The notes beneath the pieces are model-generated. The model did not search any database. It had not been told where the DNA came from and worked only from the letters and a program-made list of their open reading frames with translations. Both the position numbers and the translations under genes were made by a program. A DNA stretch of 64,000 nucleotides, from the IMG/VR virus record IMGVR_UViG_3300028888_000066, positions 1-64,000 of that record; one strand, 5' to 3'. Within the stretch, counting starts at the first letter, position 1. Each line of letters begins with the position of its first letter. Shown here in pieces: positions 5,418 to 30,452 of the stretch. The DNA is from a virus. Its lineage: Duplodnaviria; Caudoviricetes.

Positions 5418-5966
5418 TTATAGTTGATTCCATTCTTCATCCGAATATTTTTTAATATCAGTTTTTCGTCTTGGTAAATTATATTTATCGCACCATTTAC
5501 GAATAGCATTTCCATCTACTCCAAATTGACGTCCAAGAGCTTCAAAAGATTGCATTCTAATTAATTGTTTTAATTCTTCACGATTTGGACGTTCAACCTT
5601 TCTTTGTGCAATTCTACTACAGTCTAAACATAATTTTGCTCTGTATTCTTTATGTTTACCACAAATAGGACAAATATTATTTGGTATTAAATCAACAATA
5701 TAACTACCATCATTTAATTGTTTTAGCACATTTTCATTTTCATTTAATTTATGAAAACGAGTATGTTCAGATTTAGTATGAAATACTAATAGATTATTAT
5801 AATTATTATTTGCACGATTGCCATCTCGATGATGAACAACCTCTTCATCTTTAAGGGCGCGGCCTAACATTTCTTCTGCTTTAATAATGTGTTCATAGAC
5901 AACACCCCATGAATTAGCACGATGATGTTGTGGCATAAAAATCATAACATATCCATTAGCGTCCAT
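5418..5966 (-). CDS. HNH homing endonuclease with C-terminal HTH
   Basis: YEH...VHHRDGNRANN...NL HNH motif, zinc ribbon, HTH-like tail. Free-standing in the tRNA array. Confidence 0.85.
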   Translation of the reverse strand: MDANGYVMIFMPQHHRANSWGVVYEHIIKAEEMLGRALKDEEVVHHRDGNRANNNYNNLLVFHTKSEHTRFHKLNENENVLKQLNDGSYIVDLIPNNICPICGKHKEYRAKLCLDCSRIAQRKVERPNREELKQLIRMQSFEALGRQFGVDGNAIRKWCDKYNLPRRKTDIKKYSDEEWNQL

Positions 5967-5984
5967 ATTAAATCCTCCTAAAAA

Positions 5985-6059
5985 TACACCAACGGGGACT
6001 CGAACCCATCGAACTCCAGCATTAAGAGTGCTGTACTCTACCAATTGAGTTATTGGTGC
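5985..6059 (-). tRNA. tRNA-Lys(CTT)
   Basis: CAGCA-CTCTTAA-TGCTG. Confidence 0.9.
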
Positions 6060-6245: not shown

Positions 6246-6321
6246 TGGTACCCGCTGACGGACTTGAACCGCCGACCGTCCGGATGTAAGCCGGAAGCTC
6301 TGCCAACTGAGCTAAACGGGC
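6246..6321 (-). tRNA. tRNA-Val(TAC)
   Basis: TCCGG-CTTACAT-CCGGA, CCA encoded. Confidence 0.9.
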
Positions 6322-6325
6322 ATAA

Positions 6326-6477
6326 ATTGGGTGTGCTATTACGCTAAATCTTTCATCTATTGTCCTTGGCACATCATACTCATGGGGCGGATAATCGTAA
6401 GCCCATGATACATTTAGCACCAAAGGAGATTTAAGAACTCTTTAGCTGATGGCTGCCTCTAAGCCTACAGTCCCAAT
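6326..6477 (-). ncRNA. 23S rRNA GTPase-associated-centre (L11-binding) mimic with ~90-nt insertion
   Basis: GGACTGTAGGCTTAGAGGCAGCCATCAGCTAAAGA...AGCGTAATAGCACAC, closed by ATTGGG/CCCAAT. Confidence 0.75.
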
Positions 6478-6577
6478 AATGTTTGCCTTTACTCACGCAT
6501 GAGTGTTTGCTACTACCGACATCTCGGCGGAAGTGGTTTTCATTCTTCCTAGTCTCCGAAAAGATTAGCTGCTATTG

Positions 6578-6865
6578 TGGTGGAGCTGACGAGTTCTGCC
6601 CCTCGTGTCCAGCCTATAATTCATATTAAGAAATACTTACACGATAGTCAGTTAGGCACTGACAGCCAACATTAATAATAAGTGACGCGCTAATCTATCT
6701 CTGAGCCGCAAGTACTTACCGATTAGCTGGTGTACTGTTTAAGCTAGCCAAATTAAGCGGCTAAAGCGAAATCAAATTCGTCGTTTCTTTTAGATTGCTG
6801 CGTAAGGTGCTCCGCCTACCCGTGTCCTTAATACTTCATATACCTGTCGATACTATTTCAGCCCC
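6578..6865 (-). ncRNA. ssrA: tmRNA, tag peptide (A)DEFDFALAA
   Basis: 5' GGGGCTGAAATAGTATCGAC, 3' CAGCTCCACCA, internal frame GACGAATTTGATTTCGCTTTAGCCGCTTAA. Confidence 0.92.
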
Positions 6866-7167: not shown

Positions 7168-7240
7168 AGCTCCCACTCGGATGCGCGCCGAGGTTTATTG
7201 CTTACGAAGCAATTGTACTAGACTACTGTACGATAGGAGC
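7168..7240 (-). tRNA. tRNA-Thr(CGT) with degenerate T-loop
   Basis: ATTGC-TTCGTAA-GCAAT anticodon arm, T-arm CTCGG-CGCGCAT-CCGAG. Confidence 0.75.
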
Positions 7241-23052: not shown

Positions 23053-23076
23053 ATATATATCCTCCAATAAAAATCG

Positions 23077-23164
23077 CGGCCCCGCTGGGATTCGAACCCA
23101 GACTACCTGCTTCAGAGGCATTACGGTTTTAGAGACCGGTGTTGTACCATTCAACTACGGGGCT
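23077..23164 (-). tRNA. amber-decoding tRNA(CTA) with long variable arm
   Basis: CCGGT-CTCTAAA-ACCGT anticodon arm, CTGGG-TTCGAAT-CCCAG T-arm, G73. Confidence 0.88.
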
Positions 23165-23548: not shown

Positions 23549-23618
23549 AATAAAGCCTCCCTATGCTTATTATATTTTTTATAGAAGTGAAAGTTCCTTA
23601 CCTTTCATTTCTATTATA

Positions 23619-29309: not shown

Positions 29310-30452
29310 TTAGGTATAACTTACAGTTGCATTTGTGGACGCACTTGTCGCGGTAACACTTGTAATAATAGAAGCCGTTACGCTAACATTACCAGCAGTG
29401 CCAGTAAACCCATATGTATCTGGCACAGTAATAGCCATAGAGGCTGAATAAATAGTTGTACCATTAAAAGTACCACTTCCAGTAATAGAACCAACTGTTT
29501 TAACCACTGATGCACTAGCCGTACCGCCTAAGGTATTTGCAGAACTAGAAACAAGCTAATTTAAACTAAGAACGTGTCCAGAAACAGAAGCGTATAATAA
29601 TGAAGCATTATTTGCTGGAGGTGTAGTGGTTAATCCTGTTAATGCTTGAATTCCAGTGACAGAAGAAATTACATTTGTCGTGGTGCCACCACTAGCAGAA
29701 GCGGAAATCGCAACCGTGCCAGCTGGCTTATACACCCAATAATTTGCAGTACTGGCTGGGGTGACACTAGTGGAAGTAATTTTTAAATATTTAGTCGTGC
29801 TGCCAGTAAGTGTTATGGAACCTGATGGAGTAAATTGACCTTTAGATGTAACAGTAGTAGCGCCGGTATTAATCGCAGTCACTTTATCATATTTTACTAC
29901 CACACTGTTTTTATAAGCCAGAGTACCTAAATCTTGCGCACCAATATCGCCAAAGAATTGCCATTTTGAACCGTCCCAAATGTATTCTTGTGCTGCATGA
30001 TTTGCGGGTTTATATATTGCAATTGCGCCAGTCGTAGCATTTATAGTTGTAGAATCAACTTGAATTGAAGTCGCCGTAGAACCGTCTGTAAGTGTTGTAG
30101 ATGATACACCTATAAACGAGGTATATTTAGACATGCCATCAACACGCGTTGTTAATTGACCTAGATTTGAAGAAACACTATTAACTGTCCCAGAAATACT
30201 ATTTACAGTACCTGACAAACTGTTAACTCGTGAAGATACACTATTTACATTGCCAGAAATACTATTTACTGTTCCAGATAAACTATTAACGCGCGAAGAG
30301 ACACTATTTAAATTACTAGATATACTATCAACAGTAGTGCTCATTGCGTCAACGGCTTGGCGTGCCGCGAGGTCAACAATTTCATAAGTATTATTACTTG
30401 GTAGAGTAATCTATTTTATATACAAAGTATCATTTGATGGAGTGATTGCCAT
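29310..30452 (-). CDS. fibre protein with heptad repeat coil
   Basis: (VNSISGT/VNSVSSR/VNSLSGT)n, EYIWDGSKWQFFG, Ser/Thr-rich tail. Confidence 0.8.

Follow-up and report, generated by a model that had tools for sequence, protein, structure and literature searches.

Why would a phage keep, among its tRNA genes, a short stretch that reads like a piece of large-subunit ribosomal RNA? The question is raised by a sheep-gut phage known from an IMG/VR record of 132,621 bp (IMGVR_UViG_3300028888_000066), estimated to be 74% complete. On its minus strand, between a tmRNA gene and a tRNA-Val gene, lie 152 nt (6326-6477) which an initial annotation, made on the first 64,000 nt of the record (hereafter the window), had read as a stand-alone mimic of the GTPase-associated centre (GAC) of 23S rRNA. 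tRNAs, tmRNAs and a handful of ribosomal proteins are known from phages; as far as we have found, none has been described with a separate copy of a functional centre of rRNA. Here we ask whether the likeness is real, whether the RNA is more than the remains of a captured rRNA gene, and what it could do for a phage. The observation is confirmed and its structural reading is supported; the function that we propose is plausible on the sequences at hand.

The GAC-like RNA and its 23S counterpart

The letters of the minus strand are as the initial annotation gave them, and they resolve into the parts collected in Table 1. As reference we used E. coli rrlH, with 23S nt 1051-1108 taken as the GAC segment. 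In a direct alignment, 42 of 49 core positions between nt 1055 and 1104 are identical (28 of 34 at 1055-1088 and 14 of 15 at 1090-1104), which bears out the likeness to H43-H44 first noticed. The closing stem of its own that had been claimed for the element is also there, six base pairs long. No other rRNA was said to flank it, and this holds for the whole 132,621-bp record, where nothing matched the Rfam model LSU_rRNA_bacteria (RF02541). When 5,426 E. coli genomes were searched by blastn with the window RNA, nothing was matched, probably because a match of about 40 nt cannot reach the E-value limit at 28 Gb.

For structure-based searches we used a covariance model, R1, made from 24 short members of the family described below, with the structure assigned by hand; it contains phage copies only and no rRNA. 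R1 finds the window element at full length (model positions 1-167, or 6315-6487 including the model flanks) and exactly once in the 132-kb record. Reciprocally, when R1 was run on E. coli rrlH, the only significant match was at nt ~1040-1120 (52.7 bits, E 1e-13). With these scores, chance is no explanation of the likeness. R1 also matches the GAC site, there without an insert, in seven Patescibacteria 23S rRNAs. Alignment to large-subunit rRNA models, a check suggested by the initial annotation, agrees with this: RF02541 matches the 5′ half of one member of the family (locus L024) at the GAC positions with 31.4 bits, below threshold. Across 19 member loci, the sole overlap with any Rfam family was a sub-threshold LSU rRNA match. 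The family and the R1 match to the GAC of rrlH thus support the reading of the window element as a stand-alone copy of the uL11-binding, GTPase-associated centre of 23S rRNA.

Table 1. Parts of the GAC-like RNA and its neighbours in the window (four-digit numbers within feature names, and the ranges in brackets there, are E. coli 23S positions unless a window position is evident)
Feature	Positions	Strand	Evidence
Whole GAC-like RNA, closing stem to closing stem, 152 nt	6326..6477	-	R1, 101.9 bits, E 1e-27
Closing stem, 5′ strand AUUGGG, equal to top of H42 (1050-1055)	6472..6477	-	pairs with 6326-6331
Closing stem, 3′ strand CCCAAU	6326..6331	-	6-bp stem with 6472-6477
H43 copy (1057-1081), loop UUAGAGGCA; A1067 is window position 6460; 1070 is G	6446..6470	-	alignment to E. 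coli
Junction CUAAA (1082-1086), then G1087, A1088, G, U	6437..6445	-	alignment and family conservation
Insert, 88-nt irregular hairpin, base helix UCUU/AAGA	6349..6436	-	family covariation
Linker UUU and A (G in most members)	6345..6348	-	U in 81-82 of 83 members per position
H44 copy, G1091-C1100 hairpin GCGUAAUAGC (window 6344-6335), loop GUAAUA, A1095 at window position 6340; then A1101, C1102, A1103	6332..6344	-	14 of 15 identical to E. coli
tRNA-Val (UAC), starting 4 nt downstream of the closing stem	6246..6321	-	ARAGORN; Rfam tRNA, 62.6 bits
tmRNA, ending 100 nt upstream of the GAC-like RNA	6578..6865	-	RF00023, 46.1 bits (gathering 47), E 1e-16

An insert closed by a stem had also been reported at the junction. 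The 88-nt insert is real, and the register given for its stem (TAAATCT/AGATTTA) is wrong: covariation backs a base helix of UCUU (6436-6433) with AAGA (6352-6349), followed by AUCU/AGAU, and the earlier register was rejected because it would consume the conserved UUU(A/G) linker. Within the insert, a conserved internal loop, GUGC(U/G)AAAUGUAU, lies opposite AAGUAUGAUGUGC.

The family, its fold and its lineage

Relatives of the element are numerous. In a blastn search of GenBank phages, the H43 half was matched in unannotated gaps of several phages, namely the jumbo phages XaC1, XbC2, GAP32, BF, CBB and the pEa_SNUABM series, and Pseudomonas phage pf16 (KU873925), where the copy, at 29406-29613, sits between tRNA-Asn and tRNA-Pro. 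These copies follow a common plan and differ in the lengths of their inserts. An exact-pattern scan of IMG/VR with the H43 half returned 114 stretches, none of them real 23S rRNA. When H44 was sought by a 3′ regular expression, it was found 46-339 nt after the H43 half in 100 of 118 matches, and R1 later gave full-length matches in the remaining loci too. An independent IMG/VR scan with the H44 half (TTTGGCGTNNNAGCACAC) contributed at least 91 new loci among the matches listed. Almost every locus searched with R1 (88 and 91 phage loci, ~170) contains a single full-length copy. These copies represent at least 162 distinct sequences, and the members other than that of the window score 50-133 bits. 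In each of five whole phage genomes, those of XaC1, GAP32, pf16 and two relatives of the window phage (98-100% complete), there is exactly one copy. By these counts, the GAC-like RNA is small and structured, is encoded by one gene copy, and belongs to a large family specific to phages.

Rfam 15 gave only noise over 6326-6477 (E ~10), with no family at or near its gathering score. T4 rnaC and rnaD were considered as relatives and rejected, R1 with filters off scoring no more than 9 bits anywhere in the T4 tRNA region. In the searchable literature, where subscription journals are thinly covered, we found no description of a phage GAC-like RNA family. The window element is apparently a further member of a large, undescribed class of phage RNAs.

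The initial annotation had proposed a search of phage genomes for homologs with covariation, and these relatives provide it, both in the helices and in one tertiary pair. In the hand-made and the model-fitted alignments alike, shifting the partners by 1-3 columns lowers the share of paired cells from ~91-92% to 36-52%, and the covariation score from 0.63 to 0.08-0.18. In the hand-made alignment, changes on both sides were found at 9 of 10 closing-stem pairs, at all 4 pairs of the insert base and at the H43 pairs 1057:1081 and 1058:1080, the former being C-G in the window and A-U in most members. The model-fitted alignment (87 sequences), which leans towards the model, gives a similar picture; here the closing stem has two-sided changes at 10 of 10 pairs.

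Bias from the search patterns was avoided by reading the 5′ half only in the 3′-anchored set and the 3′ half only in the 5′-anchored set. G1055, G1059, U1060, G1063, G1071, C1072, C1079, A1084, A1085, G1087 and A1088 are invariant in the 3′-anchored set; A1084, A1085, G1087 and A1088 are unchanged in 76 of 76 independently anchored members. We take the invariant nucleotides to be the builders of the GAC tertiary fold seen in the 1999 structures of Wimberly and Conn. Moreover, the lone tertiary pair 1082:1086 covaries (C:G in 32, U:A in 28 and A:U in 11 members, or 71 of 76). Because the tertiary nucleotides are invariant and 1082:1086 covaries, there is strong comparative evidence that the free RNA adopts the three-dimensional fold of the rRNA domain. 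The loop tips are looser: A1067 is kept in 64 of 75 members (85%; G in 9 of 75), G1068 in 51 of 75 (A in 24) and A1095 in 77 of 83 (93%), and positions 1096/1097 vary.

The window copy, with C1082/A1086, is off the family rule for the tertiary pair, as are several close relatives with ...CAGCUAAAG. Given its R1 score it stays in the family, and the departure is, judged from these relatives, a peculiarity of the subclass. The folds given by RNAalifold and by minimum free energy were rejected; in them GCUAAA has UUUAGC as its partner, and the GAC fold does not appear. The single-sequence folding z-score of the window RNA is only -1.8. Thermodynamic folding being a poor guide for this RNA, we relied on the comparative pairs.

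The family also has marks of its own, which are all present in the window copy (A at 6334, corresponding to 1101; G-U at 6438-6437; the insert at 6436-6349; UUUA at 6348-6345). Position 1101 is A in 82 of 84 members and U in E. coli and in the seven Patescibacteria 23S rRNAs. After A1088, each of the 76 members read at this place has G-U, and it is here that the extra helix is inserted. In the UUU linker, which rRNA does not have, U is nearly invariant (Table 1). Because A1101, the UUU linker and the fourth helix are common to nearly all members, the sequences indicate that the family is a lineage of its own and not the result of repeated rRNA capture. The simplest reading would be that the family arose once, long ago, and then spread among large phages. 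The initial annotation had named a decayed, captured rRNA fragment as the alternative. On this comparative evidence such a fragment is ruled out, being contradicted by the at least 162 relatives, the covariation and the family-specific marks.

The H43 variant of the window (C1057-G1081, ...CAGYUAAAGAG) occurs in 7 of ~185,000 species genomes, in every case in real Patescibacteria 23S rRNA; the seven Patescibacteria with this window-type H43 stem include Berkelbacteria and Saccharibacteria (L119-L125). The sharing is probably a coincidence, and it could be a hint at the host. A recent copy from the rRNA of a typical gut host was considered and rejected, the variant being absent from gut-typical phyla. 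The same scan of ~185,000 genomes, restricted to the pattern of the window's subclass, gave no cellular copies with the insert.

Across the family, the inserts range from 46 to ~340 nt and belong to unrelated classes standing on the covarying base helix. An alignment of 8 sequences from the subclass of the window shows the insert as a long hairpin of irregular shape, in which 15 pairs are compensated and the internal loop given above is conserved in sequence. Another module, CACCCC-(UAAC/GNRA)-GGUAAGG, is found in 30 of 162 members (for example, L003, L007, L039 and L078) and is absent from the window copy. Its consensus is GNC-ACC-CC(G/A/U)-[UAAC or GNRA]-(C/U/A)GG-UAAG-GNC, with a covarying 3-bp hairpin stem. 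We asked whether the module might imitate another part of rRNA, such as the sarcin-ricin loop, and rejected this, as it has no counterpart in E. coli 23S rRNA and the window does without it.

Inserts of such variety, each class with its own conserved motifs, such as this module or the internal loop of the window's subclass, are consistent with a division of labour in which the GAC fold serves as a handle, either a compact, uL11-coated, nuclease-resistant scaffold or a means of docking near ribosomes, and the variable insert does the work, like cargo on tRNA scaffolds. However, the strongest and most universal constraint lies on the GAC core and not on the insert, and a mere scaffold would not need factor-facing loops kept at 85-93%. 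We consider a handle of this kind improbable.

The tRNA array around the RNA

The GAC-like RNA had been placed next to a tmRNA, and an Rfam tmRNA match indeed lies there (Table 1). It extends over the full model length (positions 1-374), its tag ends in ...FALAA followed by a stop, and ARAGORN misses it; phage tmRNAs as divergent as this are probably annotated too rarely. All 23 tRNAs found by ARAGORN in the window are on the strand of the GAC-like RNA, and so are 1027 of 1028 tRNA genes in the member loci. A tRNA or tmRNA is present in the fetched flank of 114 of 162 members and within 10 nt in 63 of 162; in three members, a detectable tmRNA is the nearest downstream gene on the same strand, 9 to 491 nt away. 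With at least 23 tRNAs, an amber suppressor tRNA, a tmRNA and the GAC-like RNA, the translation toolkit of the window is unusually rich.

Several other RNA matches were noticed as well. An Rfam tRNA match at 7168-7240 (minus strand, 49.9 bits) is absent from the ARAGORN list and adds at least one tRNA-like gene to the 23. A match to the cow-rumen-4 RNA (RF02948), an orphan motif of unknown function, is found at 23549-23614 (minus strand, 60.7 bits against a cut-off of 48.5), here in a phage and some hundreds of bases away from its amber suppressor tRNA. Sub-threshold matches to YrlA, a Y RNA-like RNA, lie near members of the family in two other phage tRNA arrays (L194, 1253-1537; L053, 2270-2339), a hint that such arrays are shared by RNAs of several kinds besides tRNAs.

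The neighbourhood also bears on whether the RNA needs a role in trans at all. It could be a functionless captured piece of rRNA, or else a cis-regulatory leader of a neighbouring gene, and we find this hardly credible. A relic would not be expected to show at least 162 distinct members, compensatory changes, invariant tertiary nucleotides and family marks. For a leader one can point to GAP32 and XaC1, whose copies stand between small ORFs, with an ORF starting ~30 nt downstream of the RNA. These two ORFs, however, were rejected as a conserved downstream gene or cis target, as they are not homologous and have no Pfam match, and most members, including that of the window, are flanked by tRNAs and not by ORFs.

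Comparison of the GAP32 and XaC1 ORFs likewise revealed no conserved protein partner gene beside the RNA. We found neither an L11 nor an L12 gene in the virus record of the window, nor did five other carrier genomes, each with one copy of the GAC-like RNA, yield an L11 gene; a phage-encoded L11/L12 was rejected as partner on these grounds. A tie to the YcaO/radical-SAM operon of the window, as a form of thiopeptide immunity, was rejected as well: YcaO is absent from five relatives of the same subclass, two of them complete.

A CUA-anticodon tRNA of 89 nt, labelled 'Pyl' by ARAGORN, lies at 23076-23164 on the minus strand. Such a length is usual for class II tRNAs, whose variable arm is long; the corresponding tRNA of locus L036 is similar (89 nt), and those of L011 and L069 have 76-77 nt. 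L11-deficient ribosomes reportedly terminate poorly with RF1 at UAG (Bouakaz et al. 2006; Van Dyke et al. 2002). The GAC-like RNA could then be an aid to TAG recoding, where withdrawal of uL11 weakens RF1, which reads UAG, and so favours the amber suppressor tRNA of the phage. Domain 1 of RF1 makes contact with L11's N-terminal domain (PMC3677378), and a CUA-anticodon tRNA is found both in the window and in L036, a relative of the same subclass. Yet the family is also present in GAP32, XaC1 and pf16, with no sign of recoding seen (the code itself being outside the analysis), and a CTA suppressor tRNA was found in only 3 of 60 member loci scanned. The relevance to amber recoding suggested by the initial annotation is therefore very unlikely to reflect a general role; it would be a secondary use at best.

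Two metatranscriptome contigs span the whole RNA. The first (X2, sheep gut) has 240 nt and is exact over 6272-6511; the second (X5, from a second sheep-gut study) has 191 nt over 6303-6492, with three differences. The contigs place the element in RNA libraries; DNA carry-over is possible, so transcription is not proven by them. The region 5900-5993 is covered in a DNA run (X1) and not in the RNA runs, and such gaps carry no evidential weight. Runs with small shares played no part in judging the habitat. In the region, summed contig depth peaks over the spacer at 6478-6577 (minus strand) in two RNA libraries, at ~240 in X2 and ~187 in X5. No fold beyond shuffled controls was found at 6478-6580 (z = 0.0). 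This 100-nt spacer may be a processed leader or another small RNA common to related phages, or its depth may come from cross-mapping from other organisms.

Possible roles and known systems

What could a free GAC do in an infected cell? Candidate roles listed by the initial annotation are titration of L11/L10, RelA or translational GTPases, a damped stringent response, altered release-factor activity and the binding of thiopeptides. We propose that the GAC-like RNA, released by tRNA-processing enzymes, imitates the stalk base away from the ribosome and captures the uL11 of the host as a decoy, and we regard the chances of this proposal as evenly balanced. Transcription of the tRNA/tmRNA array would include the RNA, which RNase P and 3′-end nucleases would then free, the cut at the 5′ end of tRNA-Val, 4 nt downstream, setting the 3′ end of the RNA. 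It would take up the compact fold of the GAC, here as a four-way junction, and bind uL11, which would be the host's because no phage examined encodes L11. The resulting uL11-RNA particle would act as a decoy away from the ribosome, withdrawing or intercepting uL11 and whatever recognises the uL11-RNA surface. Host responses that depend on uL11 would thereby be blunted. RelA activation requires L11 (relC mutants), and a blunting of it is our first guess at the gain for the phage.

Conservation of the fold is what points to binding of uL11, and of thiostrepton, by the GAC-like RNA. An isolated 58-nt GAC fragment is reported, in work of the Draper laboratory, Wimberly (1999) and Conn (1999), to bind both L11 and thiostrepton tightly in vitro. 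The pattern of an invariant fold with relaxed loop tips fits recognition by the C-terminal domain of uL11 better than recognition by GTPases or antibiotics, and the variable tips would weaken a GTPase- or thiopeptide-directed role. Binding of L10, which the initial annotation had also suggested, is doubtful because H42 is reduced to its top 6-12 bp, with a sequence that is free to vary.

Several points count against the decoy. First, ribosomal uL11 is abundant and tightly bound, and a sponge would therefore need tRNA-like copy numbers. Second, we know of no mechanism that strips uL11 from assembled ribosomes. Third, the fourth helix and A1101, in H44 near the junction, could alter protein recognition. 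Finally, C1082/A1086 in the window breaks the tertiary pair of the family, and the RNA has no conserved partner gene at its side.

The uL11-coated RNA, perhaps with the L10-L12 stalk, might go further and work as a portable 'mini stalk base', an off-ribosome GAC that captures RelA, release factors or translational GTPases. The phage would in this way control the stringent response and termination, and RF1 would be weakened at UAG in TAG-recoded phages like that of the window. We consider this possible but doubtful. If true, it would be the first virus-encoded functional domain of ribosomal RNA.

Alternatively, the GAC-like RNA could be bait, a sponge for agents that attack the GAC, either a thiopeptide or a toxin, from the host or a competitor, acting on H43/H44 by modification or cleavage, so that the ribosomes are spared. 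Phage tRNA arrays are thought to counter tRNA-directed defences, and the GAC-like RNA is located in such arrays. The thiopeptide contacts A1067 and A1095 are kept in 85% and 93% of members, respectively. Enzymes aimed at the GAC do exist: the type VI secretion toxin Tre23 ADP-ribosylates H44 at nt 1095-1098 and blocks the GTPase activity of EF-G (PMC8661411). On the other hand, positions 1096-1097 in the H44 loop and G1068 vary freely, which is odd for the look-alike of a target. To our knowledge, there is no anti-phage system directed at the GAC. Exposure of infected cells to thiopeptides across lake, soil and gut habitats also seems unlikely, and the YcaO operon of the window is unlinked to the RNA. 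Bait is, in sum, an unlikely role, and capture of uL11 by a decoy is the reading that we carry forward.

If uL11 is bound, the family would open a new viral route into translation control, by way of the stringent response, termination or factor recruitment. It would also amount to a minimal GAC of natural origin, already tried out by evolution and with a site where an insertion is tolerated, which could be put to use in RNA structural biology and as an RNA scaffold. The family is common in large phages of many habitats, and its cultured carriers (GAP32, BF, CBB, XaC1 and pf16) make it testable at the bench. We found no described case of a virus-encoded mimic of a ribosomal RNA domain in the searchable literature, and the nearest known systems are compared here.

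The closest is the bacterial 23S GAC itself, that is, the top of H42 with H43 and H44, the 58-nt domain bound by uL11 and thiostrepton. The phage RNA has the same helices and the same H43 and H44 loop sequences, and the nucleotides of the tertiary fold (U1060, A1088, G1071, C1072, A1084/85 and the 1082:1086 pair) are found in the phage family too. In contrast to the GAC, it is a free-standing 152-nt gene inside a tRNA array, with a short closing helix of its own and the rest of the rRNA absent. The 23S GAC is a three-way junction with a continuous H44 (1087-1102) and U1101, whereas the window RNA has an 88-nt helix in the 5′ strand of H44, and A1101. Across the phage family, this fourth helix adds 46 to ~340 nt after G1089-U, and position 1056 is often A.

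The autoregulatory leaders of ribosomal protein operons (the rplJ L10 leader, RF00557, and those for L1, L20 and S15) are also off-ribosome mimics of protein sites on rRNA, and the L10 leader mimics the neighbouring site of the stalk base. They are, however, cis-acting 5′ UTRs of cellular operons that bear a loose likeness to rRNA and control the downstream gene, whereas the phage RNA is near-identical to rRNA and lies among tRNA genes, without a conserved downstream gene or a match to an Rfam leader.

The small stable RNAs of phage tRNA clusters (T4 rnaC and rnaD, phage tmRNAs and YrlA-like RNAs) share its niche, being co-oriented in tRNA arrays and presumably released by tRNA-processing enzymes, but the GAC-like RNA is not homologous to them. 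Finally, decoy RNAs such as 6S RNA, which mimics open promoter DNA, and the phage pseudo-ToxI, which mimics an antitoxin (PMC3475682), share the logic proposed here, in which the ligand of a host machine is imitated to sequester that machine. What sets the GAC-like RNA apart from both is that the thing imitated is a domain of ribosomal RNA.
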